From Phycisphaera mikurensis NBRC 102666 (lineage in GTDB: Bacteria > Planctomycetota > Phycisphaerae > Phycisphaerales > Phycisphaeraceae): a DNA stretch of 32,000 nucleotides. The notes under the pieces were generated by a model. It made no database searches, was not told the DNA's origin, and worked only from the letters and a program-made list of their open reading frames with translations. Shown one piece after another: positions 1,312-26,689 of the stretch. How positions within the stretch are numbered: position 1 is the first letter of the stretch; every line of letters begins with the position of its first letter. A program made the position numbers and the translations under genes. Where the stretch lies: positions 3,600,001 to 3,632,000 of the forward strand of contig NC_017080.1 of NCBI RefSeq assembly GCF_000284115.1, written 5' to 3'.

Positions 1312-1920
1312 TCACCGCTTCCGCTGGAGCACCAGGTCCCCCGTGCTCCGGTAGGTCAGCAGCAGCGCCCCCGTCGCGGCGGCCGCTTCGAACACCGCTT
1401 CCACCACGGCCTCCTCTCCGGGCCACGGGTAGGCGTAGACGAGGGCGGCGTCCGAGGGATCCAGCCCCAACGCGTCGTGCCCGTCGGCCAGCCCGGTCGC
1501 CAGCGTCGCCAGATCGTCGGCGACGTCCGCGAGGCCGTCGTGCTCGGGCGGGATGAAGCTGCCGTGGGCGAAGGCGACGGCGAGGCCGTGCGACGCGGCG
1601 AGGTCCTCGGCCTCCTCCACGAGCGCGGCTTGGGCCTCGATCCCCGCGGAGTCGAAACCAAGCGTCGCCGCGAGGCATGCGGCGACGCCGACGCCCGAGC
1701 CCCACTCCAAGAAGTTCGAGCCCGGCGCGAGCCGGCCGCCGCGGACCGCGGCAAGCCCGGCGTGCACCCACGCGTAATCCGCGGGCACGAAGGAGCCCAA
1801 GCCTTCGGGATCACGCCGACGGAGGTCGTCGATGCGGGTGTCGGCATCCGCGAGCAGACGCTCCGTGGCGGGTGGGAGCGGTGCCGCGGCCGGAGTGAAA
1901 GGCACCTCGATCAGCGGCAT
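1312..1920 (-). CDS. Small class-I SAM-methyltransferase-fold protein (202 aa), function unknown
   Basis: ATG at 1920 (MPLIEVPF...). ExGxGxG-like motif FLEWGSGVGVAACLAATLGFDSAGIE. High GC3. Same strand as the CsgG-like and flagellin genes and downstream of them. Confidence 0.45.
   Translation of the reverse strand: MPLIEVPFTPAAAPLPPATERLLADADTRIDDLRRRDPEGLGSFVPADYAWVHAGLAAVRGGRLAPGSNFLEWGSGVGVAACLAATLGFDSAGIEAQAALVEEAEDLAASHGLAVAFAHGSFIPPEHDGLADVADDLATLATGLADGHDALGLDPSDAALVYAYPWPGEEAVVEAVFEAAAATGALLLTYRSTGDLVLQRKR
1739..1784. repeat. 46-bp symmetric element, degenerate copy (left arm perfect, right arm 7/10)
   Basis: ccgcggaccg-N26-taatccgcgg, inside the methyltransferase-fold ORF. Confidence 0.5.
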
Positions 1921-4902: not shown

Positions 4903-7900
4903 TTGCTTGCCCCCTTCCGCAGCCATGCCGCCCCACGCGCAGCCGTGCGGGCGTTTGCGGAGGCGGATCCGGCCGCCGTGGCCGTCGCCGGCCCCACCGG
5001 CGTGACCACGACGCTGCTCGCCGCGGCCGCCGCGCTCGCTCACCCCGGGCCGGTGCTGCTCGTGACGGCTTTCGAGGACCAGGCTCAAGCGGCCACGGCC
5101 GACCTCCTGAACCTCGCCCGCGGGAGCGACGAGTCTGGAATCGGCGGCGCGGGCGACACGCACCTGGTGGTGGCTCCCTTCGACGCGTTGGGCCCACGCG
5201 ACCTGCTGGGCGCCCGGGCCGAGGGCCCGCTGGTTCGGCGGGTGGTGCTCGCCGCGACGCTGGACCACGGGGCCACCGGTCGGCAGGACGCGGAGGGCCT
5301 CGCCGCGAACGCGGGCCGCTGGGTGATCGTCGCCTCCGTCGCCGCGCTGCTGCAGGCGGTGCCGACCGAGGCGGTGGTCGCCGGCGCCGTGCGGCGGATC
5401 CACCCGGGGGATGCCGTGGACCTCCCCGCGCTCGTCGGCCTCTTGGAGGCCACCGGGCACCGGGCCGCGAGAGCCGAAGCGGTCGCCGCCGGGACCTTCC
5501 ACGCCGGGGGGTCCACCCTCCGCTTCCGCCCGCTGGGTGCGATCGCCACCGACGACGCCGGCCGCGCCTCCACCGCGGCGCGGGCGGCGGTCGTGGTCGG
5601 CTTCGAGGAGAACCGCATCGCGTCCATCCGCTTCGCCGACCCGCCGACGGAGGCCTGGAACCGCCCGCTGGCCGCGATCACGCTCGCGACACCGGATGCG
5701 AAGCGCGTGCTGCAGCGGGCATCGACCCGCTGCCTGCTCGACCTGCTGCCGGCCCGCACCGGCGTCGTGCTCGACGACGCCGAGGCGATCGCGCTCGAGG
5801 CCGCCCGGCTGGGCCGCCGCGCCGCGGGCGGCGGTGGCGACCTCACGCCCGCCGAGCTGGACGAGCGGCTCGCCGCCCGCCCGGTCGTCCGGGTCGACCT
5901 GCAGCCCGCGGCGGAGGCCGCCCTCCGCCTCGACGCCGGGCGCCCAAGCCCCTTCCCGCTCCACGCCGACGCGGCGGGCCGGGAGCTCGCGGCGAGGAGC
6001 CGAGACCGCCGCGTGCTCGTCGTGAGCGACCGGCCCGACGACCCGCGGCTGGCCGATCGGCTCTCCGAAGCCCCCGAAGCCCGCTTGATGCGGGGGCTTC
6101 TCTCCGAAGGGTTCCGGCTGCGGGGCGAGGACGGCTTCGAGGCGGTGCCCGGCCACGAGCTGCTCGGCGTGCCCGCACCGCCCGGAGCCGCGGTCGAGGA
6201 CCCCGCCGCCGACGGCGCGCCCGACTCCGGCACCCTCGGCTCCGTCCTCGTCTCGCTGGAACCCGGCGACCCGCTCGTCCACGCCGAGCACGGCGTCGCC
6301 CTGTACGAGGGGATGGAGCCGATCGAGATCGGCATCGGCAGCCGCCGGACGACCATCGACCACCTGACGCTCGCCTTCGCCGAGCCCGACACGCTCCGCG
6401 TGCCCGCCGACCAGGCCGCCCGGGTCTTCCCCTTCCACGCCGCCGACGACGCCCCCACGCCCGACCCGCTCAACAGCCGGGCCTGGGCGAAGAAGCTTTC
6501 TGCCGCCGAAGCCGCCGCCAGCGCCTTCGTGCGGGCGCAGCGCCGGGCCGCCGCCGAGGCCGCCGACCGGCCCGGCCGCGCCCACCCGCCCGAGCCCGAC
6601 CGGCTCCGCGCCTTCGAGGCCGACTTCCCCTTCGAGCCCACGCCCGACCAGGCCGAGGCGTTCGCCGCCGTCGCCGCGGACCTCGAAGCCGAGATCCCGA
6701 TGGACCGGCTGGTCTGCGGCGACGTCGGCTTCGGCAAGACCGAGGTGGCCGCCCGGGCGATCTTCCGCGTCGTCCGCCCGCGGCGGCGGGGCGGCCGCCG
6801 TGGGCACCAGGCCGTCCTGCTCGCGCCGACCACCGTGCTCGCCGAGCAGCACGGCCGGAGCCTCGCCGAACGCCTCGGCCCGCACGGCGTGTCGGTCGGC
6901 GTGCTCTCGCGGCTGCGTCCGGCGGACGAGCAGAAGCAGCTGAAAGCCGGCCTCGCCGGCGGCACGCTCGACCTGCTCATCGGCACGACGGCGCTGCTCG
7001 GCGAGGGGATCGAGCCCGACGACCTCGGCCTCGTGGTCATCGACGAGGAGCACCGCTTCGGCAGCGGCGACAAGGAGGCCCTGCGGCGGCTGCGGGACGG
7101 CGTGGACACGCTCGCCCTCACCGCCACGCCGATCCCGCGCACGCTGCACACCGCGCTCGCCGGGCTCCGCGCTGTCTCCACGCTGCGGACGCCGCCGGCA
7201 GGACGCAGAGCCGTCGTCACCGAGGTGCTGCCCGCCGAGGACGGCCGCCCGCGCGTCCGCACCGCCCTCTCGCGCGAGCTTGCCCGCGGCGGGCAGGCCT
7301 TCGTCGTCCACAACCGCGTGGAGGGCCTCGCCGAGGCGGCCGAGGAGGTGCGGGACCTGCTCGGCGGCGTGACCCGCCCCGACAGGAGCACCCCCGTCGT
7401 CGCCTCCGCCCACGGCCAGCTCCGCGAGGAAGAGCTCGAGGACGCGTTGCTCGCTTTCACCGCCGGCGACACCGACGTGCTCGTCTGCACGACGATCGTC
7501 GAGAACGGCCTCGACGTCGCCCGCGCCGGCACCATCGTCGTCGAGGGCGCCGACCGCTTCGGCCTCGCCTCGCTGCACCAGCTGCGCGGCCGGGTCGGTC
7601 GCTCGGGCCGGCGGGGTTTCTGCCTGCTGGAGGTCCCGAAGAACGCCCGGCTGAGCGAGGGGGCGCAGAAGCGTCTGGCCGCGATGGAAGACGCGGACGG
7701 CCTCGGCGCCGGCTTCGCCATCGCGGAGGCCGACCTGGCCCTCCGCGGCGCCGGAGACCTGCTCGGGGACGAGCAGTCCGGGCACGTCGCCGCCGTCGGC
7801 CACGCCCTCTACAGCCGACTCCTCCAGCGGGCCGCTCGCGAGCAGGCCGGCGACCTCCGCCCCGCCCCGGAGCGCACCGGCCACGCGCTGCCCAACACCG

Positions 7901-8503: not shown

Positions 8504-9949
8504 ATGACCGCCACCGCGCTGCTCACCGACCTCTATCAGCTCGGCATGGCGCAGGGATACTGGAAGCTCGGCCGCGCCGACCAGCCGGCGGTCTTCCACC
8601 TCTTCTTCCGCGAGGCACCGTTCGGCGGAGGCTTCGCGATCGCGGCGGGCCTCGGGCCGGTGCTCGATCTGCTCCGCGGCTTCGCGTTCACCGCGGACGA
8701 CACCGACCACCTCGCCCGCATCCCCGGCGGCGACGGGCGGCCGCTCTTCGAGGCCGCGTTCCTGGCCTACCTCCGCGACCTCCGGCTGACGATCGACCTC
8801 GACGCCCTGCCGGAGGGCACCGCGTGCTTCGCCCACGCCCCGCTGCTGCGGGTCCGAGGGCCGCTGCTCCAGTGCCAGCTGCTCGAGACGGCGCTGCTGA
8901 ACGCGTTGAACTTCCAGACGCTGGTCGCCACCAAGGCGGCCCGGGTGAGAGACGCGGCCGGTGGAGACACCGTGCTGGAGTTCGGCCTCCGCCGGGCGCA
9001 GGGCACCGACGGCGCGCTGGCCGCGAGCCGGGCGGCGTACCTCGGCGGCGTCGACGCGACCAGCAACGTGGCGGCGGGCAAGGCGTACGGCATCCCGGTG
9101 AAGGGCACGCAGGCCCACAGCTGGGTGATGAGCTTCGAAACCGAGCGCGAAGCTTTCGCGGCCTGGGCCGACACCGCACCCAACAACGGCGTCTTCCTCG
9201 TCGACACCTACGACAGCCTCGCCGGCGTCGACCACGCGATCGAGGCCGGGCGGAGGCTGCGGGGAAAGGGGCACCGCCTCGGCGGCGTCCGGCTCGACTC
9301 GGGAGACCTCGCCTGGCTCAGCCGCGAGGCCCGCAGAAGGCTCGACGCCGCCGGCTTCCCCGAGGCGCAGGTCGTCGCGAGCAACGACCTCGACGAGCAC
9401 GTCATCCGCGACCTGAGGAGCCAGGGCGCCGCCATCGACGTCTGGGGCGTCGGCACACAGCTCGTCACCGCCCACGACCAGCCGGCCCTCGGCGGCGTCT
9501 ACAAGCTCGCCGCCATCCGCGACGCGGGAAGCGGCTGCTGGATCCCGAAGGTCAAGCTCAGCGAGACCACCGCCAAGACGAGCCTGCCGGGGATCCTGCA
9601 GGTCCGCCGCTACGACACCGCCGCGGGTGGTCGCGCCGCCGCCGACCAGCTCTGGAGCGAGCTCGACGGCGAGCCGAGGACGCGCGAGCTGATCGACCCG
9701 ACCGACCCGATCCGCCGACGCACGATCGCCGCGGACCGCGGCTGGAAAGACCTCCTGGAGCCCGCGGTCCGCGGCGGCGTGGTCGTCTTCCCGGACGAGC
9801 CGCTGGCCGCCGCCCGCGACCGGGCGCGGGCCGAGCGGTCCAGGCTGGACCCGACGGTGCGCCGGCTCGTGAAGCCGCACCGCTACCCGGTCGGCGTCAC
9901 GCCCGAGGTTCTCGCGCTGCGCCAACGCCTGATCGAGGCGGCCCGCTGA
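8504..9949 (+). CDS. pncB: Nicotinate phosphoribosyltransferase
   Basis: [21 protein letters not shown]-terminus, [17 protein letters not shown] and RLDSGDL motifs. ATG at 8504. Confidence 0.85.
9729..9774. repeat. 46-bp symmetric element CCGCGGACCG-N26-CGGTCCGCGG (arms extend to 13 bp)
   Basis: Perfect arms, inside pncB. Confidence 0.85.
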
Positions 9950-10308
9950 TGCCCCACGCCTCCGCGTTCGCACGCCCCGCGCTGGCCGTGGACGTCGTCG
10001 TCTTCGCCTCCGGGGCGAGCCGCGACGGGACGGACCTGCGGGAGATGCGGATCGAGCGCGACACCGAGCCCTCCGCCGGGCGCTGGGCCCTGCCCGGCGG
10101 CTTCGTCCACGTCGACGAGACGATCGAGGAGGCGGCGCGGCGGGAGCCGGACGAGCGGGACTTCCGCAAGAAGATCCTGGGCATGGGGATTCTCGCGGGA
10201 ACCGGAGCCATCGAGAAAGACGTGAAGCTCCGAGCGGCGGAGCCGTACCGCTTCGATGCGGAGGCGTGCAGGCGGCTTTCGCGAGGTGGCTTCCACTTCG
10301 AATCGTGA
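9949..10308 (+). CDS. NrtR-like (Nudix-related regulator) remnant, 119 aa, with large internal in-frame deletion
   Basis: The start overlaps the pncB stop (TGATG). The N-terminal Nudix beginning ALAVDVVVF...ALPGGFVHVDETIEEAARRE breaks off in the middle of the Nudix box. It joins directly to DERDFRKKILGMGILAGTGAIEKD...EPYRFD, which resembles the extreme C-terminus of NrtR winged-helix domains. Confidence 0.55.
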   Translation: MPHASAFARPALAVDVVVFASGASRDGTDLREMRIERDTEPSAGRWALPGGFVHVDETIEEAARREPDERDFRKKILGMGILAGTGAIEKDVKLRAAEPYRFDAEACRRLSRGGFHFES

Positions 10309-10384
10309 GGCGTGCGGGGCAGCGCTCCGCTTGACCACAGAGGGAGACCGAGGCACAGAGGCACAGAGAGAGGCACGGAGAACC

Positions 10385-10759
10385 ATGGGAGCTTCGCTCC
10401 TGATCGACATCCAGAATGACTTCCTCCCCGGCGGGAGCCTGGCGGTTCCTGATGGTGACGCGGTGATCCCGGTGGCGAACCGGCTGATGCCGGCGTACCG
10501 GCTCGTCGTCGCGACGGAGGACTGGCACCCGGCGGGGCACGGGAGCTTCGCGAGAAGCCACGCCGGGAAGAGGCCGGGCGAGGTGATCGAGCCGACCGGG
10601 CAGGACCAGGTGCTCTGGCCGGACCCTTGCGTGCAGGGCACGCCGGGGGCGGAGCTTCACGACGACCTCGATCGCGGCGGCGTCGACGAGGGCGACGGGT
10701 GTGACGATCTGCTGAACGGACCGGGTGCCACGCCCCTCGGGGGGTGGCGTTCTCGATGA
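10385..10759 (+). CDS. pncA: Nicotinamidase/pyrazinamidase PncA fragment, 3'-truncated (probable pseudogene)
   Basis: LLIDIQNDFLPGGSLAVPDGDAVIPVANRL...VVATEDWHPAGHGSFA...VLWPDPCVQGTPGAELH matches the N-terminal ~100 aa of the isochorismatase/PncA fold. Similarity ends near 10690 and the ORF stops at 124 aa. The catalytic Lys and Cys regions are absent. WPDHC reads WPDPC. Confidence 0.6.
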   Translation: MGASLLIDIQNDFLPGGSLAVPDGDAVIPVANRLMPAYRLVVATEDWHPAGHGSFARSHAGKRPGEVIEPTGQDQVLWPDPCVQGTPGAELHDDLDRGGVDEGDGCDDLLNGPGATPLGGWRSR

Positions 10760-14322: not shown

Positions 14323-16347
14323 TTAGACCCGGCCGGGCCGGTCGAGCACGAACAGCACGTGGCGGTGCAGGCCGCGGCTGAGGTGGCGGGTCTGGGCGGG
14401 GACGAGCTCGGCGGCGGCGAAGCGTCCGGCCCAGACCTGCTCCCTCGCGAAGCGCAGCGGCCCGGCGAGGCCGTCGCGGCCACCGCCCCGCAGCCCGTTG
14501 AAGAAGCGGTCGAGCCGCGTGAGCAGCCAGAGGCCGCCGGCGGTGCGGTACACGCTCTCGGCGACCAGCAGCCGGCCGCCGGGCCGGACGACGCGGACGG
14601 CCTCCGCGAGCACGGCTTCGGGGTCGTCGCAGTGGTGGAGGACGGTGAGCACCGTCGCCGCGTCGAAAGCGCCGTCGCGGAACGGCAGCCGCCGGCCGTC
14701 GCAGGCGAGCACGGGGGCGGCGGCTCCCGCTTCGGCGTCCACGTCGACCCCGACCGCGGTGAGGCCGGTCCGCCGCGCGAGCGCCGCGGTCACGAGGCCC
14801 TCCCCGCAGCCGACGTCCAGCAACCGCCCCTCCTCCGGGAGGAAGCCCGACAGCCGCGCCGCCTTCCACTCCGCCCGCGCCCTCATCAGGGGGCCGATCC
14901 ACAGCGGCCGGGCGTCGTGGAAGAGCAGCAGCACCGCCACGCCGCCCCACTCGATCGTCATCACCCAACCCGGCACGCCCCACGCCGGGAGCGTCGGGTC
15001 ATAGGCGAGGTGGGTGAGCGGGACGGTGGCCGCGAGCCAGAGCAGGGCCGGCCGGCCGACGCGCGTGAGCGGGACGAGCCAGAGCACCCCCATCAGGTAC
15101 CAGGGGTGAACCGTTGGGGACAGCAGCAGGTACGCGCCGAAGAGAGCGGCCAGAAGCCCGGGGATCCGCGCCGCGTCGCGGCCGCGCCACGCCCGCCAGA
15201 GCACCGCCGAAGCGACGCCCCCGAAGACCGCGAGCAGGAGCCGCGACGCGATCTGCGCCGAGAGCGTTGGGTCGCCCGTGCCGGCGAGTGCGACCCGCTG
15301 GAGCCCGACGAACAGCGGGTTGTTGAAGTGGAAATAGCCGGCGTAGAGGGCGAGCGACGCCCGCACGCCCGCGCCGTGCGGCGGGCCCAGCAGCGGCCAG
15401 AGCAGGGCGACGCCGGCGGCCGTCGCCGCCGAGAGCAACGCCCAGCGGGCCCGGCCGCGGAGCCGGGCCGCGAGGACCGCGGCCGCCGCGATCGGGAACA
15501 GCTTCACCGCGGCGGCGACCGCGATGCAGAGCCCGGCGAGCGCGGCCGCCGGGGGCGGACACGCCGGCTCGGCTCCGGCTCGGGGCGGGGCCGCAGCGGC
15601 GGTCGCCCCGGAGCCGGATCGCGGAGGCTCGACCGGCCGACGCGGAAGCACCAGGCCCACCGCCGCGATCAGCGGGAGCGTGAGCAGCGCCTCGGTGTGC
15701 ATCCCCCCCACGGCCTCCACCGCCGGAAGCGGGTGCCACGCGTAGAGGATCGCCCACCCCGGGTGCCGGCCCAGCCGCCGGAGCACGAGCAGGAGCACCC
15801 CGACGGCGGCGAGGTCGACCGAGCCGAAGATCAAGCGGAGCGCGGCGACGCCGCCGTCGAGCGTCCCGCCGCCCAGCGACCAAGCCGCCGCGAACGCCGC
15901 CTGGCTCACCGGCGGGTAGACCGAGCGGAAGCCGCGGCTGTTCATGCCGTGGAGCAGCCGCGTCGCCTCGGCGGACGGCGGATCCGCGGCGGCGGACGCG
16001 TCCGGCGTCGCCGCGTAGGGGCTGCGGGCCGCAAGCGACTCGCGGCCGTCCCACAGGTAGCGGTTGAAGTCGGTCGAGAGCGTGTCCGCCATCGGCAGCA
16101 CGAGCCCCCGCGTCAGCGCAGCGACGAGCAGCACCCAGACCGCCGCCTCCCGCGTCGGCAGACGCCGCGCCGCCGCCACGCCCAGGAGCCCGGCGAGGCA
16201 GCCGATCGCCCAGGCCGCCGAGACTTCCAGCGTCACCGTCCGCGGGTCCGCGACCGCCGCGTGCACCGCCGCCGGGCCGACCGCCCCGGCGGCCGCGAGC
16301 AGCAGCCACACCCGCGGCTGGGTTCTGCCGGAGGAGGAGCCGTGCAT
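14323..16347 (-). CDS. Polytopic GT-C-fold glycosyltransferase (DUF2029/GT87-like) fused to a C-terminal class-I SAM methyltransferase domain (674 aa)
   Basis: Many hydrophobic segments and a TVHPWYL motif in the N-terminal ~480 aa. The C-terminal ~190 aa carry LLDVGCGEGLVT, LPFRDGAFD and VVRPGGRLLV (Methyltransf_11-like). ATG at 16347. Confidence 0.6.
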   Translation of the reverse strand: MHGSSSGRTQPRVWLLLAAAGAVGPAAVHAAVADPRTVTLEVSAAWAIGCLAGLLGVAAARRLPTREAAVWVLLVAALTRGLVLPMADTLSTDFNRYLWDGRESLAARSPYAATPDASAAADPPSAEATRLLHGMNSRGFRSVYPPVSQAAFAAAWSLGGGTLDGGVAALRLIFGSVDLAAVGVLLLVLRRLGRHPGWAILYAWHPLPAVEAVGGMHTEALLTLPLIAAVGLVLPRRPVEPPRSGSGATAAAAPPRAGAEPACPPPAAALAGLCIAVAAAVKLFPIAAAAVLAARLRGRARWALLSAATAAGVALLWPLLGPPHGAGVRASLALYAGYFHFNNPLFVGLQRVALAGTGDPTLSAQIASRLLLAVFGGVASAVLWRAWRGRDAARIPGLLAALFGAYLLLSPTVHPWYLMGVLWLVPLTRVGRPALLWLAATVPLTHLAYDPTLPAWGVPGWVMTIEWGGVAVLLLFHDARPLWIGPLMRARAEWKAARLSGFLPEEGRLLDVGCGEGLVTAALARRTGLTAVGVDVDAEAGAAAPVLACDGRRLPFRDGAFDAATVLTVLHHCDDPEAVLAEAVRVVRPGGRLLVAESVYRTAGGLWLLTRLDRFFNGLRGGGRDGLAGPLRFAREQVWAGRFAAAELVPAQTRHLSRGLHRHVLFVLDRPGRV

Positions 16348-16380
16348 CACGCGGCCGAAGCTACGCGGACGCCGGCGGAT

Positions 16381-16426
16381 CCGCGGACCGCCGGCGCCGG
16401 TCGCCGTTACGCCCCGCGGTCCGCGG
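16381..16426. repeat. 46-bp symmetric element CCGCGGACCG-N26-CGGTCCGCGG
   Basis: Perfect arms. Intergenic, 13 nt downstream of the GH20 stop. Confidence 0.85.
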
Positions 16427-16439
16427 ACGCCCGCGGCGC

Positions 16440-18200
16440 TTAGAAGTTCCCGCTGGTCCGCACGGCGCCCGCGTCGGCTCCGGTCACCCGCAGCGGCTTC
16501 TCCAGCTTCCGCACCGAGTCCTCCAGCCCGCCGGGCCGCGACCGGATCGCCCACAGCGCCCGGTGCTCGGCCGCGAGCCCCTCGAGCTCGGCCCGCATCG
16601 CCGGGCCCGCGCCGGCGTCGCCGCCGCGCAGCCGCTCGCCGGCACGCCGGCAGGACCACCGCGCCAGCGCCGCCGAGAAGGCGGCCTCGCGGACCAGCAG
16701 CGCCGCCTCCTCCGTCCGCGTCTCGACGGATCCGAGCCGGCCGAGCACCGCGTCCAGCGCCGCCTCGCCCGCGTCGGTGTCCGCCGTCGACAGCCGCGCG
16801 AGCGGCTCCTCCGCGATCGGCAGCTCCGGCGCGTGCAGGAAGCGGAACCACCACGTCGCGTTGTGCCAGCGTGCGTCGCTGCTCTCGTAGGCGTTGGCGA
16901 GGTCCCAGAGGATGGCGCCAAGCCCGGGATCTTCCTCGTCGGCGGCCACGCGGGAGATCGCGCGGGGCAGGGCGTCGGTGTCGCCGTTGGTCCGGAGGCA
17001 CCACGCGACGCCGGAGCCGAAGACCAGCCCGACCCACGACACCGCCTGCGTCTGCCAGTGGCCGTGGTCGCCCCACTCGGTGTTGAGGTAGCCCTCGGCG
17101 CCGAAGCGGATGCCGGCCTCGGCGGCGTCCCGCTGGTTGTCGGTGGCGTTGCGGCCGCGGCCGGTGAGCGAGCACCACGACGACGTGCCGGGGCAGACGT
17201 AGAAGCGGACACCCGCTTGCTGGAACCGCTCGCTCTCGGGGGCGAAGCTCTTGATCGACTCGTAGTTCCAGTTCACCAGCACGCCCTCGGGCGGCAGCTC
17301 TGCGATCAGCTCGGGGTGGTTGAGCACGATGTCGCCGAAGTAGATCGGCGTCTTGCCCCGCTCGCTCACGCGGGCGCAGAGCCGCTTGAGGTACCCGAGG
17401 TAGACGTGAGCCTTGCCTTCTCTCTCGCAGGCTTCCTTGCTCTTGCCCTGGCCGAGGTCGAAGGTTTCGTCGCAGCCGATGTTGAAGAGCGTGGCGTCGG
17501 ACGCGGCGCACAGCTGGTCGATGAGGTCGGCCGACAGCTCGAAGGCCTCCGGCAGGACCGGCGCCAGCGAGCAGGTGCCCGGCCGCCAGCCCCAGGGGCT
17601 CTCGAAGCCCTCGTCCACCTCCGCGAGGTGGTGGTACGCCGGCAGGTCGAGCCAGCGCTCCATGTGGCCGAACAGGTTCTGGCAGGGGACCAGCTCGATG
17701 AAGTGCTCGCGGCAGAGGCGCTGGATCTCGCCGAGCTCCTCGAAGGTGAAAGGCGAGGCGTCCTTCCACGCGGGCTCGTGGCCGGCGTAGCGGATCGTGT
17801 GCTCGGTGTAGAGCTCCAGGTGGTTCACGCGGAGCCGGCCGAGGCGTGGGATCAGCGTGTCGCGGAGGAACGCCATCGACGGCACCCGGTCGCGGCTGCA
17901 GTCGAGCATGTAGCCGCGGACGGCGAGGTCGGGGTGGTCCACGATCTCGCCGCAGGGCAGGCGCTGCGGCGCGCCCAGCCGCAGCTGCCGCAGCGCCTCG
18001 CGGCCGTAGAAGAGGCCCGCTTCGTCGTGCGCGACCAGATCGACGCCGTCGCCGCGGACCGTGAGCCGGAAGCTCTCTTTTCGCCCGCGGTCCGCGGGGT
18101 CGACCCGCTCGCTCACCGGGGCGTCGGCGGCGGCGGTGCCCTCGGCGGCGGTGACCGATTGCGGCGCGGGAAAGAGGAACAGGTCGGGGAGGTTCAGCAT
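16440..18200 (-). CDS. Glycoside hydrolase family 20-like (beta-N-acetylhexosaminidase-like) protein
   Basis: IVDHPDLAVRGYMLDCSRDRVPS...LRVNHLELYTEH, FNIGCDETFDLGQG and NTEWGDHGHWQ. No obvious signal peptide. Confidence 0.65.
   Translation of the reverse strand: MLNLPDLFLFPAPQSVTAAEGTAAADAPVSERVDPADRGRKESFRLTVRGDGVDLVAHDEAGLFYGREALRQLRLGAPQRLPCGEIVDHPDLAVRGYMLDCSRDRVPSMAFLRDTLIPRLGRLRVNHLELYTEHTIRYAGHEPAWKDASPFTFEELGEIQRLCREHFIELVPCQNLFGHMERWLDLPAYHHLAEVDEGFESPWGWRPGTCSLAPVLPEAFELSADLIDQLCAASDATLFNIGCDETFDLGQGKSKEACEREGKAHVYLGYLKRLCARVSERGKTPIYFGDIVLNHPELIAELPPEGVLVNWNYESIKSFAPESERFQQAGVRFYVCPGTSSWCSLTGRGRNATDNQRDAAEAGIRFGAEGYLNTEWGDHGHWQTQAVSWVGLVFGSGVAWCLRTNGDTDALPRAISRVAADEEDPGLGAILWDLANAYESSDARWHNATWWFRFLHAPELPIAEEPLARLSTADTDAGEAALDAVLGRLGSVETRTEEAALLVREAAFSAALARWSCRRAGERLRGGDAGAGPAMRAELEGLAAEHRALWAIRSRPGGLEDSVRKLEKPLRVTGADAGAVRTSGNF
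18052..18097. repeat. 46-bp symmetric element CCGCGGACCG-N26-CGGTCCGCGG
   Basis: Perfect arms, inside the GH20-like ORF. Confidence 0.85.
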
Positions 18201-18292
18201 GGGACCGGGACCGGATCGGGTGTCGGCCGTGCGAGCCTAGAGGGAGCCGGCACGCTCTCCCGGTGCGGGACGCGCTGCTTTACGCTGCGCCG

Positions 18293-19954
18293 ATGAGCGA
18301 CGAGACGGTGCACACGAACCTCGTCGACCTCCACGCCCGCGCGGTGCGGCCGGCGACGATCCGGGTGGAGGGCGGGAGGATCGCGGCGATCCAGCCGCTG
18401 GCGGGAGGCGCGGAAGCCCGCGGGTTCGCGCTGCCCGGCTTCGTCGACGCCCACGTGCACGTGGAGAGCTCGATGCTCACGCCGGCGAACTTCGCGGCGG
18501 CGGCGGTGGTGCACGGGACGGTGGCGAGCGTGAGCGACCCGCACGAGATCGCCAACGTGCTGGGGGTGGAGGGCGTCCGCTGGATGCTCGACAACGCGGG
18601 GTCGTCGCCGTTCCGGTTCGCGTTCGGAGCGCCGTCCTGCGTGCCGGCGACCGCGTTCGAGACGGCGGGCGCCGCGCTCTCGGTGGCCGACGTCACCGGC
18701 CTGCTCGACGACGACCGGATCTTCTACCTCTCCGAGGTGATGAACTTCCCCGGGGTGCTCGGCGGCGACCCGGACCTGCTCGCGATGATCGCCGCGGCGG
18801 AGCAGCGGGGCAAGCCGGTGGACGGGCACGCGCCCGGGCTGCGGGGGGAGGACGCGCGGGCTTACCTCCGGCGCGGGATCGCGACCGACCACGAGTGCTT
18901 CACGCTGGAGGAGGCCGAGGACAAGCTGGCCTTGAGCGGCACGAAGGTCCTGATCCGCGAGGGGTCCGCGGCCCGCAACTTCGACGCCCTGTGGCCGCTG
19001 ATCGACCGCTTCCCCGGCCGTGTGATGTTCTGCTCGGACGACAAGCACCCCGATCAGCTGCGTCCTCCGGCCGAGGGTGGCTGGCACATCAACCGGCTGT
19101 GTGCCCGGGCCGTGGCCAACGGCTGCGACGTGTTCCACACGCTGCGGGCGGCGTGCGTGACCCCGGTGGAGCACTACGGCCTGCCGGTGGGGCTGCTCCG
19201 CGTCGGCGACCCCGCCGACTTCGTCATCGTGGAGGACCTGGCGGGCTTCGCGGTGACGCGGACGCTCCTCGGCGGCGTGGAGGTCGCGGCGGGCGGCGTG
19301 TCGCGCATCAGCCCCCCGCTCGCGACAGCACCCAACCGCTTCGCCGCCGAGCCGGTCGACGCCGCCGCGTTCGCGGTGCCCGCCGCAGGAGGCGCGACGG
19401 TCGCGGCGATCGTGCCCGAGGACGGGCAGCTGGTGACCGGCCGGCGGGACGTCGCGGCGACGGTGCGCAGCGGCGCCGCCGTATCGGACCCGGGCCGCGG
19501 GCTCCTGAAGCTCGCCGTCGTCAACCGGTACACGCCGGGCGTCGCGCCGGCCGTCTGCTTCGTCGAGGGCTTCGGCCTCACGCGCGGCGCCATCGCCGGC
19601 TCGGTCGCGCACGACTCGCACAACGTGCTGGTCGTGGGCGCGGACGACGAGGCGATGGCCGCTGCGGTGAACGCGGTGGTGGCCGAGCGCGGCGGGCTGG
19701 CGGCTGCCGACGGCAGCCGGGTGGAGGTGCTGCCGCTGCCGGTGGCGGGTTTGATGTCGCTGGCTGCGGTGGACGAGGTCGCCGGCCGCTACCTGGAGCT
19801 CGACGCGATGGCCAGGGCGATGGGCTCGACGCTGCAGGCGCCCTTCATGACGCTGTCGTTCATGGCCCTGCTGGTGATCCCGGCGCTCAAGCTCTCGGAC
19901 CGCGGCCTCTTCGACGGCACGCGATTTTCCTTCACCGAGTCGGTGACCGCGTAA
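18293..19954 (+). CDS. ade: Adenine deaminase
   Basis: GFVDAHVHVESSML, VDGHAPGLRGEDARAYLRRGIATDHECFTLEEAEDKL and GSVAHDSHNVLVVG. Alternative GTG start at 18263. Confidence 0.85.
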   Translation: MSDETVHTNLVDLHARAVRPATIRVEGGRIAAIQPLAGGAEARGFALPGFVDAHVHVESSMLTPANFAAAAVVHGTVASVSDPHEIANVLGVEGVRWMLDNAGSSPFRFAFGAPSCVPATAFETAGAALSVADVTGLLDDDRIFYLSEVMNFPGVLGGDPDLLAMIAAAEQRGKPVDGHAPGLRGEDARAYLRRGIATDHECFTLEEAEDKLALSGTKVLIREGSAARNFDALWPLIDRFPGRVMFCSDDKHPDQLRPPAEGGWHINRLCARAVANGCDVFHTLRAACVTPVEHYGLPVGLLRVGDPADFVIVEDLAGFAVTRTLLGGVEVAAGGVSRISPPLATAPNRFAAEPVDAAAFAVPAAGGATVAAIVPEDGQLVTGRRDVAATVRSGAAVSDPGRGLLKLAVVNRYTPGVAPAVCFVEGFGLTRGAIAGSVAHDSHNVLVVGADDEAMAAAVNAVVAERGGLAAADGSRVEVLPLPVAGLMSLAAVDEVAGRYLELDAMARAMGSTLQAPFMTLSFMALLVIPALKLSDRGLFDGTRFSFTESVTA

Positions 19955-20093
19955 GCGAAGGCCACCGCCCCGGCCTGCCGCCGACGGCGGCGGCGTCGAC
20001 CGTGCACGCTCGGAAGACGTGCGGACTTCGCTGCGCCTCCACGCTGAAGCCCTCCGGGCTCCACGCCGCGGCGGTGGTCCCCACCGACCGGAG

Positions 20094-20139
20094 CCGCGGA
20101 CCGTCGGCGTTTCGGAGCGCAAGACGCGACGGTCCGCGG
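20094..20139. terminator. 46-bp symmetric element (13-bp perfect stem CCGCGGACCGTCG / CGACGGTCCGCGG); candidate bidirectional terminator
   Basis: Lies between convergent ade (stop 19954) and uraH (stop 20142-20144). No U-tract. Confidence 0.55.
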
Positions 20140-20141
20140 AC

Positions 20142-20459
20142 TCAGGAGCCGCGGTAGCTCGAGAAGCCGAAGGGCGACACCAGCAGCGGGACGTGGTGGT
20201 GGGACGCGGGGTCGGTGACCTCGAACCGCACCTCCACGGAGGGGTAGAAGCACGGCCGCCCGGAGAGCGCGAAGTACGCGGCGGTCTCGAAGCGGAGCAC
20301 GAAGACGCCGGCACCGACCGCGGGAAGCTCGCCGTAGCGGCCGTCGGCGTTGGTGGTTCCCTCGGCGAGCACGGCGCCGTCGGCGTCGCGGAGCCGCAGC
20401 GACATCCCGGCGGCGGGCACGCCGAGGGCGGTGTCGAGCACGTGGGTGGAGAGGCTCAC
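20142..20459 (-). CDS. uraH: 5-hydroxyisourate hydrolase (transthyretin-like)
   Basis: LSTHVLDTALGVPAAG N-terminus and diagnostic C-terminal YRGS. The GTG start overlaps the upstream gene's stop (GTGA). Confidence 0.88.
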   Translation of the reverse strand: MSLSTHVLDTALGVPAAGMSLRLRDADGAVLAEGTTNADGRYGELPAVGAGVFVLRFETAAYFALSGRPCFYPSVEVRFEVTDPASHHHVPLLVSPFGFSSYRGS

Positions 20460-21343
20460 GTGGTGGGCGACTCCGCCGGGAGGACCCCGTTCGCGCGGAA
20501 GAACGCTTCGGCGTCGCGGAAGAATTGCGAGGGCATCGGATTCAGGTGGCTCAGCCGGTAGGTGTGGAAGGTGGCGTCGGGCCGGGCCGCCGCGTTGGCC
20601 TCGCCCATCGCGTAGGGCAGCACCTCGTCGATCTCGGAGTGCACGATCAGGACCGGCCCTTCGTAGAGGGCCAGCGCGGCGGTGACGTCCCAATCGTCGC
20701 GGATCAGGAAGCCGGGCACCCACAGGCTCCACGCGATCCGCGAGATGGAGGTGTAGGTGCTCTCGAGGATCAGCGCCGCCGCGGCCGGCCGCTGCGCGGC
20801 GACGGTCGCGACGATGCCGCCGCCCATGCTCCGGCCGTGGAGCACGATCCCGGCCGGGTCGACCCGCGGGTCGGCCGCGAGCCGGTCGAAGAAGGCGAGG
20901 TGGTCCGCGGTGATGCCCCTCTTGGTCGCTCTCCCGGTCGAGTGTCCGCAGCCGCGGTACTCCACGAGCAGCACCGAGACGCCCAGCGCGCGGTACATCG
21001 GGAACGCCTCCTCGTAATCCTCGATGAACTCCGCGTTGCCGTGGGCAAAGAGCACCACGGGCCCGGGCGCGGCCTCGCTCACGCCCTCGCCGGGATAGAA
21101 GTGCGCCGCGGTGCGGCCCTCCCCGTGCTCCGCCCACCAACGCTCGGCCCCGGGCGGCAGGTCCAGCTCCGCCCTTGGCTTCATGTGCTGCGCGGGGTAG
21201 AGCAGCGAACGCTCCAGCAGCATGATCAGCCCGCCGGAGAGCAGGAACAGGACGCCCACGAGCGGGCCGAGGCGCCGCAGCGAGCGGGCGAAGCCGCGGC
21301 GACGCGGGCGGGATTGCGGGTCGGGGTCGGAAGCGGCCTGCAT
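20456..21343 (-). CDS. Membrane-anchored alpha/beta-fold hydrolase, unknown substrate
   Basis: N-terminal TM helix LGPLVGVLFLLSGGLIMLL. Nucleophile elbow GRSMGG. HGNAEF oxyanion region. Translationally coupled to uraH. Confidence 0.7.
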   Translation of the reverse strand: MQAASDPDPQSRPRRRGFARSLRRLGPLVGVLFLLSGGLIMLLERSLLYPAQHMKPRAELDLPPGAERWWAEHGEGRTAAHFYPGEGVSEAAPGPVVLFAHGNAEFIEDYEEAFPMYRALGVSVLLVEYRGCGHSTGRATKRGITADHLAFFDRLAADPRVDPAGIVLHGRSMGGGIVATVAAQRPAAAALILESTYTSISRIAWSLWVPGFLIRDDWDVTAALALYEGPVLIVHSEIDEVLPYAMGEANAAARPDATFHTYRLSHLNPMPSQFFRDAEAFFRANGVLPAESPTT

Positions 21344-21462
21344 CGGCCGAGGCTACGGGGAAGCGGGAGAGAGCGAGAGAAAGAAAGATTGACAGAGAGG
21401 CACAGTTCCAGGCGGCCTTGCCGCGGCCGCCGGAGGCGGCACTTGCTGACTTCCTCTCTTCC

Positions 21463-22008
21463 TCACTCTCTCACTTCTGCGCTTGCTCCTTCCCCGTGCT
21501 CCGCCGTCAACAGCTTCGCGATCCGCAGCGCCGTGATCTTCCGCTGCTCCGCCGCGGCGACGGCGGCTTCCTTCTCCGGGGCGTTCCGCTGGCGGCGGAC
21601 GCAGGCGACGAGCATCTCGTCGGCGGTCCTGCCGGTGGCGCAGACGATGAAGGGCCAGCCGAACCTCGCCTCGTAGTTGGCGTTCTCCTCGGCCATGGCG
21701 GCTCTGGCCTCGGCGTCGGCGTCGCTCATGCCGGCCTGCTCACCCGCGGACCACTCTCGGTTGCCCGCGGACCGTGAGCGCTCGGAGCCGGGACGCTCGC
21801 CGATCCGCGGGTGGGCTTCGAAGGCTTCGAGCCAGTGGCCTTCCCCCATCGCCTCGAAGATCATCCCCGCCGCCTCGTGCAGTTCCGCGAGCGAGCGGAA
21901 GGGCCGCGAGGCGGCCATCTGCTGCGCCCACCAGCGCGTGCCGCAGCAGGCCAGGAAGGCGGCGGTGGCGTCGGTTTCGCGCAGGGCGTTCAGGTCGTTG
22001 AGCGTCAT
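21463..22008 (-). CDS. uraD: OHCU decarboxylase (2-oxo-4-hydroxy-4-carboxy-5-ureidoimidazoline decarboxylase)
   Basis: FEAHPRIGE motif and WPFIVCATGRTADEM. The ATG overlaps the allB stop (ATGA). Confidence 0.85.
   Translation of the reverse strand: MTLNDLNALRETDATAAFLACCGTRWWAQQMAASRPFRSLAELHEAAGMIFEAMGEGHWLEAFEAHPRIGERPGSERSRSAGNREWSAGEQAGMSDADAEARAAMAEENANYEARFGWPFIVCATGRTADEMLVACVRRQRNAPEKEAAVAAAEQRKITALRIAKLLTAEHGEGASAEVRE
21765..21810. repeat. 46-bp symmetric element, right arm 9/10 (CGATCCGCGG)
   Basis: Inside uraD. The variant arm encodes the conserved PRI of the HPRIGE motif. Confidence 0.7.
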
Positions 22009-23315
22009 GGCTGGAGGATGCCCGGCCCGGCCGGGCGACCGCCGATCCACGCCCGCTTCACGAGTCCGCGGACTTCGCGGCCCTCGTGCGGCGTGAGCGG
22101 GTGGCGGTGGTGGAGTTCGGCGCCGCGGACGGTCCAGCGGGCGTCGGGATCGAGGGCGACGAGGTCGGCGGGGTGGCCCTCGGCGATCCCGAAGGTCCGG
22201 CCGGCGAGCGCCGCCGGGCGCTCGCCCATCCACCGCACCACGTCGGCGAGGCCGAAGCCGCGGCGGCTCGCCTCGGCCCAGGTCGCCGCGAAGGACACCT
22301 CCAGCGAGGCGATGCCGCCCCAGGCGGCGACGAAGTCGCCCGCCTCTTGGGCCTTCATCGACGGCGGGCACGGCGAGTGGTCGCTGGCGACCAGGTCCAG
22401 CGTGCCGTCGGCGAGGCCGGCCCAGAGCATCTCCCGGTTGGCCGCGTCGCGGATCGGCGGGGCGCACTTGAACGCGGTGGCGCCGGCGGGAATCTCCTCC
22501 GCGGCGAAGCAGAGGTGGTGCGGGCAGGTCTCGGCGGTGAGCGGCAGGCCGGCGGCCTTCGCCTCGGCGATCAGCGGGAGCGACCCGGCGTCGGCCACGT
22601 GGACGACGTGCGTCCGGCAGCCGGTCTCGCGGCAGAGCCGGACGAGCAGCGCGATCGCGTCCCGCTCCATCGACGGCGGGCGGGACGCGAGCCAGGCGTC
22701 GTGCGAGCGTGGATCGGCCGGTGCCGCGGCGGGCGTGTCGGTCGCCAGCTCGGCGTGCGCGAGCAGCGGCAGGCCGCGCCGCGCGAGCGCCGCCATCGCC
22801 ACCCGCAGCTCCGCCTCCCCGGCGGCGCCGAAGGAGGCGAGCCCGCTGTCGCAGAGGAAGGCTTTGAGGCCCCACACGCCCGCGTCGAGCAGCGCCTCGA
22901 TCTCGGCCTCGCCCATGCCGCCGGTTACGCCGCCCCAGAAGCCGACGCGGCAAGAGAGCTTGTCCTTCGCCGCCGCCCGCTTCTGGGTCAGCGCCTCCGG
23001 CGTCGTCGTCACCGGCAGCGAGTTCAGCGGCATGTCGACGACGGTCGTGAAGCCACCCGCCAAGGCCGCGGCGGTGCCGGTCGCGAAGCCTTCCCACTCG
23101 GTGTTCCCCGGCTCGTTGAGGTGGACGTGGGTGTCGACGAGGCCGGGCATCAGCACGAGGTCGCCCAGGTCGGTTCCGCCCGCGGCGGCGGGATCGTCGA
23201 GCGCCAGCACCCGGGCGATCCTGCCGTCCGCGACCTCGACCGACGCCGGCCGCTCCCCCTCCGGCAGCAGCACCCGGCTGGAACGCAGGACAAGAAGCGG
23301 GACCGGGTCGGGCAC
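22005..23315 (-). CDS. allB: Allantoinase (cyclic amidohydrolase)
   Basis: GLVDTHVHLNEPGNTEWEGF, GLKAFLCDSG, LLAHAE and VASDHSPC. GTG start at 23315. Confidence 0.85.
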   Translation of the reverse strand: MPDPVPLLVLRSSRVLLPEGERPASVEVADGRIARVLALDDPAAAGGTDLGDLVLMPGLVDTHVHLNEPGNTEWEGFATGTAAALAGGFTTVVDMPLNSLPVTTTPEALTQKRAAAKDKLSCRVGFWGGVTGGMGEAEIEALLDAGVWGLKAFLCDSGLASFGAAGEAELRVAMAALARRGLPLLAHAELATDTPAAAPADPRSHDAWLASRPPSMERDAIALLVRLCRETGCRTHVVHVADAGSLPLIAEAKAAGLPLTAETCPHHLCFAAEEIPAGATAFKCAPPIRDAANREMLWAGLADGTLDLVASDHSPCPPSMKAQEAGDFVAAWGGIASLEVSFAATWAEASRRGFGLADVVRWMGERPAALAGRTFGIAEGHPADLVALDPDARWTVRGAELHHRHPLTPHEGREVRGLVKRAWIGGRPAGPGILQP

Positions 23316-23364
23316 GCGTCTACGTTACGACCGGCCTGCGCGAGTTCCTTTCAGTCGATCCACC

Positions 23365-24225
23365 ATGCACACGCTGACCCATTCGACCCACGGCAAGTCG
23401 CGCGTGCGGGTGTCCAAGATCCTGCGGCCGCGTGAGAAGCCCGCCGTGGAGGAGACGCACCGGTTCCTCGAAGCGGCCGTGGAGGTGCTTCTCGAGGGAG
23501 GCACCGACGCCGCCTACACCGACGGCGACAACGCGAACGTCGTCGCCACCGACACGGTGAAGAACACCGTCTTCGCGCTCGCCCGCGACACCGATTACGA
23601 CGACCTGCCCACGTTCGGCCGCGTTTTGGCGAACCACTTCCTCTCCCGCTACGAGCACGTGACCAAGGTGACCGTCGCGATGGAAGGCCACACCTGGCAC
23701 CGGCTGCTCGACTGCCCGCACGCCTTCACCGGCAGCGACGCCGAGGCGCGACGGGTGACGGTCGTCGCCGAACGCGGGCAGCCACTCCGCCTGGCCGACG
23801 GCTTCGGCGGGCTGATGCTCGCGAAGACCACCGCAACCTCCTTCGAGAACTTCCACCGCGACGCGTACCGCACGCTGCCCGACGCCGCCGATCGCGTGCT
23901 CGCCACGGTGCTCACCGCGAGCTGGGCCGTCAACGGATCCGCGGACCGCGACGACTTCGACGCCGTTTTCGCCACGGTCCGCGGCGCGCTGCTCACCGCC
24001 TTCGTCGACCACCACAGCGTGAGCGTCCAGGCGACGCTCTACCGCATGGCGTCGGCCGCGCTGGACGCGACGGACGCCATCGACGCCGTCACGATGTCGA
24101 TGCCCAACAAGCACCACCTGCCGGTCGATCTCTCGAAGCTCGACCGCGAGAACGACAACGTGGTGTTCCAGGTGACCGACGAGCCGGCGGGGGCGATCCA
24201 GGCGACGGTGACGCGGGGGCGGTGA
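23365..24225 (+). CDS. uox: Urate oxidase (cofactor-independent uricase)
   Basis: HGKSRVRVSKI, NVVATDTVKNTVFALA, SVSVQATLYRM and SMPNKHHLPVDL. Confidence 0.88.
   Translation: MHTLTHSTHGKSRVRVSKILRPREKPAVEETHRFLEAAVEVLLEGGTDAAYTDGDNANVVATDTVKNTVFALARDTDYDDLPTFGRVLANHFLSRYEHVTKVTVAMEGHTWHRLLDCPHAFTGSDAEARRVTVVAERGQPLRLADGFGGLMLAKTTATSFENFHRDAYRTLPDAADRVLATVLTASWAVNGSADRDDFDAVFATVRGALLTAFVDHHSVSVQATLYRMASAALDATDAIDAVTMSMPNKHHLPVDLSKLDRENDNVVFQVTDEPAGAIQATVTRGR
23939..23984. repeat. 46-bp symmetric element CCGCGGACCG-N26-CGGTCCGCGG
   Basis: Perfect arms, inside the uricase ORF. Confidence 0.85.
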
Positions 24226-24234
24226 GGCGGTGCG

Positions 24235-24942
24235 TCAGCCCTGCCCGTGGACGCCTTCGAAGACCTCAGCGAGCGCGATTCGGAAGCCCGGGAGCACGTT
24301 CCCACCGTCAAGCTCGCCACCGATGGTGATCGCCTCATCAGGTTCGTTGGGCTGGGTGTAGATGACCGCGGTGGCAGATCCGGCATCGATGATCCACATG
24401 AGGCGCGTCCCGCCGGCGAAGAGCTCGCTTCGCTTCTGGTCGATCTCCTCCTTCGTGTTTCCGCGGCTGAGGACCTCGATCACAAGATCCGGGCACAGCG
24501 GCGTCACCCGCATCAGCTTTTGCGGCAGCCGGCTCTCCTGCACATAAGAGACGTCCGGGAGGCGGACGTTGCCACCGGGCATGCGGAAGGTCGCATCGGC
24601 ACCGAATACGGCTCCGAGCCTCCGCGGACGGACGTGCGACGACAGCAAAAAAATCAAGGCTGCCGCGATTTGCGATTCGCGCACACCCATGGCCTTCTCG
24701 ACGAGCGTCCCGTGAACCAACTCGACGAGCGGCTTCTGCTCCGACGCTACCAGCGCATCTTCGGCGGTCGCGGTTCCCGGGGCGGGGTCCAGCCTGACAC
24801 GCTCGAGCGGAACCCCACCAAGAGCGGCGTGCCACGCCGCAGCCGTCAGGAATCGAATCACCTGGCGCTCCGGCTCCCGAGGCACCAACCACGCACCCTC
24901 GGGCAGAGCAACGGGAACGGTGGCAGAAAGAGCGGCTGGCAT
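24235..24942 (-). CDS. Uma2-family (DUF820) putative endonuclease
   Basis: ELVHGTLVEKAMG, LPDVSYV and PDLVIEVLSRGNTKEEIDQKRSELFAGGTRLMWIID. Visibly lower GC than its neighbours. Confidence 0.75.
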   Translation of the reverse strand: MPAALSATVPVALPEGAWLVPREPERQVIRFLTAAAWHAALGGVPLERVRLDPAPGTATAEDALVASEQKPLVELVHGTLVEKAMGVRESQIAAALIFLLSSHVRPRRLGAVFGADATFRMPGGNVRLPDVSYVQESRLPQKLMRVTPLCPDLVIEVLSRGNTKEEIDQKRSELFAGGTRLMWIIDAGSATAVIYTQPNEPDEAITIGGELDGGNVLPGFRIALAEVFEGVHGQG

Positions 24943-25060
24943 GATCCCAGCGTACGCGGCAACCCAGCGGCTTCGACCTGGATCTTGGACTTCTCTGCAT
25001 CGGCTGCCCTCGGCGACACGTGGCGAAGCGCAGAGCGCGGCGGCGGCGTTCGCATCTCAT

Positions 25061-26651: not shown

Positions 26652-26689
26652 CTAGCCCCGTCAGATGCTCCTGCGCCGGCGGGAGTCGG

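Follow-up and report, generated by a model that had tools for sequence, protein, structure and literature searches.

The stretch of DNA analysed here, 32,000 nucleotides of Phycisphaera mikurensis NBRC 102666 (contig NC_017080.1, positions 3,600,001 to 3,632,000; hereafter the window), contains a family of 46-bp inverted repeats, several of which lie inside genes of conserved enzymes. Each unit consists of two inverted 10-nt arms, CCGCGGACCG and CGGTCCGCGG, with 26 nt between them; the copy at 9729–9774, inside the nicotinate phosphoribosyltransferase gene pncB, reads CCGCGGACCG-cggctggaaagacctcctggagcccg-CGGTCCGCGG. As judged by comparison with orthologues, the copies inside genes were formed in place, their arms are derived in this clade, and the arm bases have since been conserved at a fixed register. 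On balance, we lean towards the view that the units form a lineage-specific family resembling repetitive extragenic palindromes (REPs), which is read by a sequence-specific factor and in which nucleotide-level selection maintains the intragenic members that formed in place.

A 46-bp inverted repeat of fixed spacing

Exact pairs of arms occur at positions 9729, 16381, 18052, 20094, 23939 and 30080 of the window (n = 6), compared with 0.00 in 100 dinucleotide shuffles. With gaps of 20–32 nt permitted in the search, the gap is 26 nt in all six, and the unit is always 46 bp in length. Two further copies, at 21765 and 28788, carry one mismatch, and two more, at 1739 and 6674, carry three. The window contains 15 exact 10-mer arms; all 15 sit in pairs, and the number of orphan half-sites is 0. 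Contigs of sister species, reached through their pncB and uricase homologues, were included in the comparison (L-numbers denote contigs from other species or data sets). In 138.7 kb of clade DNA, 31 pairs with at most three mismatches have a spacing of 26 nt, whereas the other spacings give 0–5 pairs each, except for 19 nt. The 12 pairs of this apparent 19-nt family are an artefact, being self-overlaps inside the same 46-bp elements.

The original prediction had described a repeat family with nine copies, six of them intragenic, in a fixed register. The family is real, with six exact and two one-mismatch copies against an expectation of about 0, and the count holds: five strong intragenic copies (in pncB, a GH20-family gene, uraD, the uricase gene and the second M20 gene), one degenerate intragenic copy at 1739 and three intergenic copies. 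The register also stands, 26 nt being the exclusive spacing, with a qualification for uraD that is given below. There are 8 strong copies in the 32 kb of the window, and 3 in 17.6 kb and 7–8 in 20.9 kb of sister-species loci; the density is fairly even in the three species, at 0.1–0.25 per kb. Genes contain 5 of the 8 strong window copies and about 18 of 60 in the clade sample. The three-mismatch site at 6674–6719 is located in mfd, where the universal RLVCGD motif of helicases forms its right 'arm'; it is probably a chance resemblance resting on this conserved motif and not a member of the family, and the same site in the L028 orthologue is less similar, with five mismatches.

The G+C content of the window is 67–77%, and the pairs might be a by-product of an extreme codon bias at third positions acting on the common peptides ADR, VRG, PRT and RSA. 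Preferred codons do make up the arms, and chance singletons are found in other high-GC genomes. One conserved Pseudonocardia-like gene carries the 46-bp pattern by chance in three data sets (L003:5151, L041:3691 and L052:1437), where it is also read AADR..AVRG; the frame is therefore the codon-compatible one in high-GC genomes. Nevertheless, we give codon bias next to no chance of explaining the pairs. When synonymous codons were drawn anew under unchanged protein sequences, exact intragenic pairs averaged 0.015, against 4 observed, and shuffling the codons within genes gave 0; a codon-usage-aware null model, named in the original prediction as a possible refutation, thus does not predict the pairs. 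The probability of the arm bases, given the protein and the local codon usage, is 0.003–0.012 per element, which, together with the derived residues described below, supports the earlier claim that the arms are imposed through codon and amino-acid choice. The spacing, solely 26 nt, also speaks against codon bias.

In a scan of 185,579 species, each represented by one genome, the unit gave 26 matches, one per genome, compared with six exact copies in a single 32-kb window. Unrelated singletons from high-GC genomes make up 25 of these matches, and the remaining one (L017) comes from a Phycisphaera-like M20 fragment; P. mikurensis itself is evidently absent from the set. A scan of metagenomes returned 53 contigs with the unit, about 30 of them from one marine assembly, and several others have two copies or canonical interiors. 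Judged by these scans, the family is restricted to one clade, P. mikurensis and its close relatives. Both a SacII (CCGCGG) and an RsrII (CGGWCCG) site are embedded in the arms; outside the elements, these sites occur at 0.8–1.4 times expectation, neither enriched nor avoided, which speaks against a drive by restriction-modification or very-short-patch repair on these sub-motifs.

Origin and conservation of the copies inside genes

Genes were called from codon-position GC profiles and Pfam. On the plus strand, pncB (8504–9949; 100% identical to the P. mikurensis protein) contains the exact element 9729–9774, the arms of which are read gCC-GCG-GAC-CGc ... gCG-GTC-CGC-GGc, or AADR..AVRG. The uricase gene (23365–24225, plus strand; supported by gene call and alignment, and likewise 100% identical to the P. 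mikurensis protein) contains the exact element 23939–23984, read SADR..TVRG. The other hosts are on the minus strand. The GH20-family gene (16440–18200; assigned by Pfam and by alignment to structures and outgroups) has the exact element 18052–18097, read PADR..TVRG; uraD (OHCU decarboxylase, 21463–22026; gene call and alignment) has the one-mismatch element 21765–21810, whose left arm CCGCGGATCG encodes the HPRIG catalytic motif; and the second M20 gene (29031–30395), an amidohydrolase of the allantoate amidohydrolase/carbamoylase family, has the exact element 30080–30125, read PRTD..RSAA. The M20a paralogue in the window is without the element. The degenerate copy 1739–1784 lies in a methyltransferase-fold open reading frame (1312–1920, minus strand), with the LEWGSGVG motif downstream; its three mismatches are all in one arm, and it may be either a decaying or a nascent copy.

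Re-reading of the frames reproduced the two reading frames and all the peptides quoted in the original prediction. Of the independent intragenic loci, nine are read in the frame xCC-GCG-GAC-CGx and two as CCG-CGG-ACC-G, and one at most uses the third frame, in which GGA and GGT codons would be required; this bias matches the preferred codons. The arm mismatch in uraD is present because the Ile codon ATC stands where ACC would give Thr. As had been proposed, the centres encode native protein segments (DLLxPxxRGG in pncB, the conserved DFDAVFA in uricase and DAAGNLIGR in M20), and the HPRIG of uraD is located in the left arm.

No insertion of 46–48 bp was found in the alignments of pncB, uricase, uraD, M20 and GH20 with orthologues, solved structures or outgroups. 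Compared to 16 orthologues, down to 60% identity, pncB is gapless over the element. The uricase was aligned with 13 homologues and with an Arthrobacter structure, in which SADRDDFDAVFATVRG stands against T--VEVDFDAVYASVRG; in the M20 protein alignment, APRTDAAGNLIGRRSAA stands against FVYEDAAGNLIGRKEGT. The GH20 protein aligns with solved structures and 10 outgroups, and the centre of its element encodes the native E-x-[YF]-R-L. In all host proteins, the arm residues fall at positions that vary in the outgroups and are derived in this clade: T--VEV has become SADRD in uricase, FVYED..KEGT has become APRTD..RSAA in M20, and in uricases of no more than 58% identity the residues at the arm positions are unrelated. 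The idea that the arm positions are ordinary variable residues elsewhere was therefore borne out by the outgroup alignments of the host proteins. One arm often draws on a pre-existing conserved motif, either VRG or HPRIG.

The GH20 and uraD copies can be compared with element-free or shorter orthologues from the same sister-species contig, L089. In GH20, the outgroup pattern DPxAV..PxGYRLxV has become DPADRGRKESFRLTVRG in P. mikurensis. The L089 orthologue, which reads CGGACGCGGT...CGATCCGCCC with no indel, shares DPxAV..PxGYRLxV with ten outgroups; therefore, the element was gained in the P. mikurensis lineage, and the conserved PxGY was lost. About half of the 20 arm positions differ between the two orthologues, and the interior is 62% identical by hand count from the alignment. 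The L089 orthologue of uraD has 15 bp fewer inside the element, therefore the 26-nt register of the uraD copy depends on an indel, which qualifies the fixed register claimed earlier. On the uraD sense strand, GGTCCGCGGG occurs twice, 24 nt apart (21740–21810; RSAGNREWSAG), near the right arm of the element; this pair suggests a small duplication adjoining the right arm.

These alignments bear directly on the possibility that a mobile palindromic element, comparable to Rickettsia palindromic elements (RPEs) or the intragenic REPs of Opitutus terrae, gave rise to the intragenic copies by inserting in frame. Palindromic repeats inside still-intact reading frames are what such insertions leave, and they are documented in other bacteria (PMC3733652). 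However, 46 is not divisible by 3, no host protein gains 15–16 residues compared to its orthologues or to solved structures, the centres hold conserved native motifs, and the GH20 interior matches an element-free orthologue at the 62% given above. We regard insertion as very improbable, in agreement with the original prediction, which had set the elements apart from in-frame insertions on the same arithmetic. Taken together, the alignments indicate that the intragenic copies arose in place by substitution and not by transposition or insertion.

Once formed, the arms are retained between species. L027 (82% protein identity) has an exact copy in pncB and L028 (78%) one with a single mismatch; exact copies in uricase are present in L088, L089/L090 and L091 (76–88%), and in M20, at the orthologous position, in L089/L090 and L017. 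Over these three genes, 20/20, 19/20 and 20/20 arm positions are invariant, the uricase value being 20/20 in four species. All 18 third-codon positions in the arms are invariant, compared with 47–66% of other third positions (product of probabilities about 3e-5), and 0 of 722 control windows in uricase are as conserved as the arms. Boundary codons swap the residue yet keep the arm bases (TCC/GCC/CCC for S/A/P and ACG/GCG for T/A), whereas the interiors, and the bases directly outside the arms, vary between species. The constraint at the DNA or RNA level that had been proposed from the window is thus visible at orthologous sites, and the comparison shows purifying selection on the arm nucleotides themselves across species. 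The uricase of L094 (69% identity) has a decayed copy, CCGCGGGCCG...CCGCCCGCGG, with one mismatch and an A:T to G:C compensatory change that was produced by two non-synonymous substitutions.

Two observations concern the centres and the surroundings of these copies. Rare A/T-ending codons make A/T tracts in the 26-nt centres at 9739–9764, 18062–18087, 21775–21800 and 23949–23974; they include GTT in uricase across four species (CTT in L088), AAA and CGA in GH20, AAA in pncB, and CGT and TCA in uraD. Such codons amount to about 6 of 40, compared with 5–7% expected; nucleotide-level pressure may therefore extend to part of the spacer. L017 is a contig of a metagenome-assembled genome in GTDB, labelled 'uncultured cyanobacterium', in which the GC fraction jumps from 0.62 to 0.77 at nt 2861. 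The part from there on (L017:2861–3947) matches P. mikurensis M20b from nt 263 of the latter, with 81% identity. The junction is 8 nt upstream of the exact 46-bp element, which is at the orthologous position, and stems either from chimeric assembly or from a rearrangement at the palindrome.

Copies between genes and RAYT-like genes of sister species

The majority of the copies in clade metagenomes are intergenic, and several are located in convergent gaps. In the window, the exact copy 16381–16426 lies 13 nt past the GH20 stop codon. The exact copy 20094–20139, whose interior CCGAAACGCCGA is the canonical one, occupies the gap between two convergent genes, those of adenine deaminase and HIUase, at 2 nt past the HIUase TGA. 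The one-mismatch copy 28788–28833 is between the M20 and cupin genes and precedes the probable start of the latter, most likely MPEHST, downstream of 28788, by about 50 nt. Among the non-intragenic copies, a stop codon precedes 18 of 42 by no more than 40 nt, and 7 of 42 begin 1–2 nt after a TGA. Starts of the form TGA-NN-CCGCGG are present at 20140–20144 of the window, L088:3629–3633, L089:20669–20673 and L092:1992–1996, as well as in L036, L040, L035 and L087; the GAAT flank consensus partly overlaps the stop codon. Placement next to stop codons could reflect either a target-site preference or a function coupled to translation termination.

After the copies were oriented by expectation-maximisation to obtain an interior consensus, they were found to share an asymmetric interior and flank, ...CCGAAACGnCGA-arm-ATTC (GAAT-arm-TCnnCGTTTCGG... 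in the reverse sense), with 11.65 bits against 3.6 in shuffles. The intergenic copies are REP-like with a weakly conserved asymmetric interior, a feature that goes beyond the original prediction. The arms close the stem in the predicted fold of every one of the eight window copies tested, with energies of -26 to -36 kcal/mol (-32 kcal/mol for the 20094 copy) and z-scores of -3 to -5. Positions 11 and 36 covary (P = 0.013), which, like the compensatory change in L094, favours pairing. A hand count of arm mismatches on the sense strand of imperfect copies, intended to test for action as RNA, gave about four G:U against one A:C, cases that are too few and non-independent.

Searches for familiar functions of such hairpins gave negative results. 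A terminator scan reported none of the copies in 15000–31000 as an intrinsic terminator; T-runs are lacking, and the flanks are ATTC or GC-rich. Rfam 15 has no gathering-score match anywhere in the window. Miniature inverted-repeat transposable elements do not fit either: the interiors of the intragenic copies are native coding sequence, and in the flanks listed, which were not scored systematically, no target-site duplication was evident. A literature search found nothing on repeats in P. mikurensis.

In the sister species, one Y1_Tnp gene (in L088, and also in L092) has as its best NCBIfam match the REP-associated tyrosine transposase (RAYT; REP_Tyr_transpos), with 59.9 bits; the protein family is widespread in Planctomycetes. 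The gene is bracketed by tandem 16-nt GGTCCGAAACGGGGAC units and, in L088, also by two inverted 46-bp copies. The 46-bp copy L088:13666 has CGGACCGTCCCCGTTT in common with the GGTCCGAAACGGGGAC array, at 16/16 bases. The flanks of the RAYT-like genes are located at L088:5600–5745 and 6495–6560, at L092:5800–5960 and 6690–6730, and in L093 around 6001–6690, where a GGGCCCAAAAAGGGG-type tandem unit is found. The perfect hairpin GAAACGGGGACAACCCCCGTTTC is present on both sides of RAYT-like genes, in inverted orientation.

The window contains ClpB, CsgG, flagellin, Mfd, pncB, NrtR, pncA, V-ATPase B subunit and PPIase genes; further genes include a methyltransferase/GT87 gene, the GH20 gene, Uma2, an insertion sequence (IS), the two M20 amidohydrolases, the cupin and XdhA. 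pncB, the NrtR-type Nudix regulator and pncA form an NAD-salvage cluster (8504–10759) that is syntenic in the sister species, where it additionally has ADP-ribosylglycohydrolase and macro-domain genes. A purine-catabolism cluster comprises adenine deaminase, HIUase, an alpha/beta hydrolase, uraD, an amidohydrolase and uricase. Where P. mikurensis has the 46-bp element in the adenine deaminase/HIUase gap, L089 has two copies of a different palindrome, CCCGGCAACTnnGTTGCCGGG (L089:7935–8064). The IS, of the IS5/IS1182 type (25216–26656), encodes a transposase of 400 aa with DUF772 and DDE_Tnp_1 domains and is bounded by 23-bp terminal inverted repeats, GCTAGCAGGCCGCTGCAGAACCC. It adjoins the Uma2 gene, where the GC content of the window is lowest, and splits the purine-catabolism cluster; several sequencing runs contain identical copies of its transposase on short, collapsed contigs. 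It was rejected as a source of the arms, to which its terminal repeats are unrelated.

Candidate explanations and known systems

In the explanation that we prefer, the intergenic copies would be hairpins placed just past genes, with an interior like that of the repeats flanking the RAYT-like Y1 (HUH) genes in the sister species. The intragenic copies represent a second mode of origin, in which arms were assembled on native coding sequence by point substitutions (plus a small indel in uraD). The starting point would usually be a half-site derived from a conserved motif, VRG giving GGTCCGCGG and HPRIG giving CCGCGGATCG, and the arms would occupy the two frames where preferred codons fit. Purifying selection on the nucleotides would then hold the arms, while the edge residues and the 26-nt centre go on evolving. 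A sequence-specific factor acting in trans may read the two arms at their set distance, most likely when they close a hairpin in single-stranded DNA or RNA; the candidates for this reader are HUH enzymes of the RAYT type and other host proteins, and a benefit to the host or to the element would create and keep the sites. Going one step further, it is possible, though we propose it only tentatively, that new sites confer an advantage or propagate themselves because of the reader of the 10-26-10 unit, and that the motif is repeatedly written into conserved enzymes and frozen as species diverge. If true, the elements would constitute an overlapping genomic code with a dedicated reader, REP-type elements would not come from transposition alone, and conserved residues could be overridden, as with the PxGY of GH20.

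Several points weigh against this explanation. The trans-acting reader is a candidate only. No RAYT homologue of P. mikurensis was found among the 120 matches listed, the 59.9 bits of the RAYT-like protein are below the NCBIfam cut-off of 80, and the repeats immediately flanking the Y1_Tnp gene are not the 46-bp element but another unit. A dimer that binds duplex DNA explains the exact 26-nt spacing of the copies formed in place more easily than a hairpin loop does. Compensatory changes between the arms, envisaged in the original prediction, were sought in the clade copies, and just the one in L094 was found; sequence rather than structure is conserved. Interior pairing in the symmetric register is not above the null, save for positions 11 and 36, and the orientation of the asymmetric interior relative to transcription is inconsistent, at roughly 13 versus 7. 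Finally, the traits that define REPs, extragenic location and the GTAG tag, are absent.

The units might instead be duplex-DNA sites of a symmetric (dimeric or tetrameric) chromosomal protein, for instance a nucleoid-associated, chromosome-organising or topology-related one, and the hairpin would be irrelevant. Such a protein would bind two 10-bp half-sites 36 bp apart from centre to centre, and selection on the density of chromosomal sites would supply genes with sites as well. The strict 26-bp spacing, in-place copies included, the lack of orphan half-sites in the window, the conservation of sequence instead of pairing, with interior pairing not above the null, and the fairly even density of 0.1–0.25 per kb in three species all agree with it, and the frequent A/T tracts in the spacer could aid bending. 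On the other hand, it does not account for the covariation of positions 11 and 36 or for the compensatory arm change; the copies 1–2 nt past stop codons, and an interior akin to the hairpin repeats that flank RAYT genes, point to a hairpin of the REP type; a centre-to-centre distance of 36 bp places the half-sites on nearly opposite faces of the helix; and no candidate protein is known. We therefore consider duplex sites rather unlikely, with a probability clearly short of that of a REP-like family with a reader.

The units might also spread by molecular drive, as with DNA uptake sequences, where biased uptake, recombination or repair favours better matches; these would build up by point mutation in coding and non-coding DNA with no benefit to the host gene. 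The in-place origin by substitution is what drive predicts, and the frame bias by preferred codons and the siting at poorly conserved residues have been reported for uptake sequences as well (PMC2817400); the density, the clade-specific motif and the inverted-repeat copies downstream of genes are also similar. However, uptake sequences are single motifs of 9–12 nt, whereas single arms are not enriched here and only the 10-26-10 pair is; no competence is known in Phycisphaera; and the likeness of the interior to the RAYT-flanking repeats is left unexplained. Drive of this kind accordingly appears quite improbable to us.

The REP-like family with a reader, which we continue to prefer, can be set beside the REP/REPIN-RAYT systems of E. 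coli and Pseudomonas. Like those, the 46-bp units are short GC-rich palindromes, apparently in high copy, located just past genes or in convergent gaps; one flank has a short conserved tag (GAAT here, GTAG or CGTC in REPs), a Y1/HUH gene is bracketed by related repeats in sister species, and copies persist at orthologous positions. Different from REPs, the family has a fixed length in which only the 10-nt base of the stem is conserved, it has no GTAG or CGTC tag and GAAT on one side only, and about a third or more of its copies are intragenic, by substitution and not by transposition. HIP1 (GCGATCGC) of cyanobacteria is, like the 46-bp family, a palindrome highly over-represented in genes and propagated by nucleotide substitution; unlike it, HIP1 is a single 8-bp palindrome without paired arms or a fixed spacer.

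REPs are usually regarded as extragenic and transposed, and intragenic ones were previously described solely as insertions. RPEs and the intragenic REPs of Opitutus terrae resemble our copies in being palindromes within intact reading frames of unrelated, often conserved proteins, but they are in-frame insertions (Di Nocera et al. 2013, PMC3733652) that add about 20–50 residues, whereas the 46-bp copies add none and have a native centre. Here, the unit arises in conserved enzymes without an added residue, and its bases are then kept more tightly than the protein they overlap. The family is a clean natural instance of dual coding and speaks for the formation of REP-like sites de novo, which the REP literature has left as an open question (PMC3733652). 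In practice, such elements distort codon-based tests of selection and may seed assembly chimeras, as in L017; synonymous recoding of the uricase or pncB arms offers an experimental handle on their function.

The uptake signal sequences (USS) of Pasteurellaceae and the DNA uptake sequences (DUS) of Neisseria are also lineage-specific, occur about once per few kb, accumulate in coding sequence by point substitution and form inverted pairs downstream of genes. They show a frame bias from preferred codons and a preference for poorly conserved residues (Findlay & Redfield 2009, PMC2817400). They differ from the 46-bp family in having a single 9–12-nt unit, in place of an inverted pair with an exact 26-nt spacer whose single arms are not enriched. 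The uptake sequence is nevertheless the closest evolutionary counterpart for the accumulation of these elements in place.

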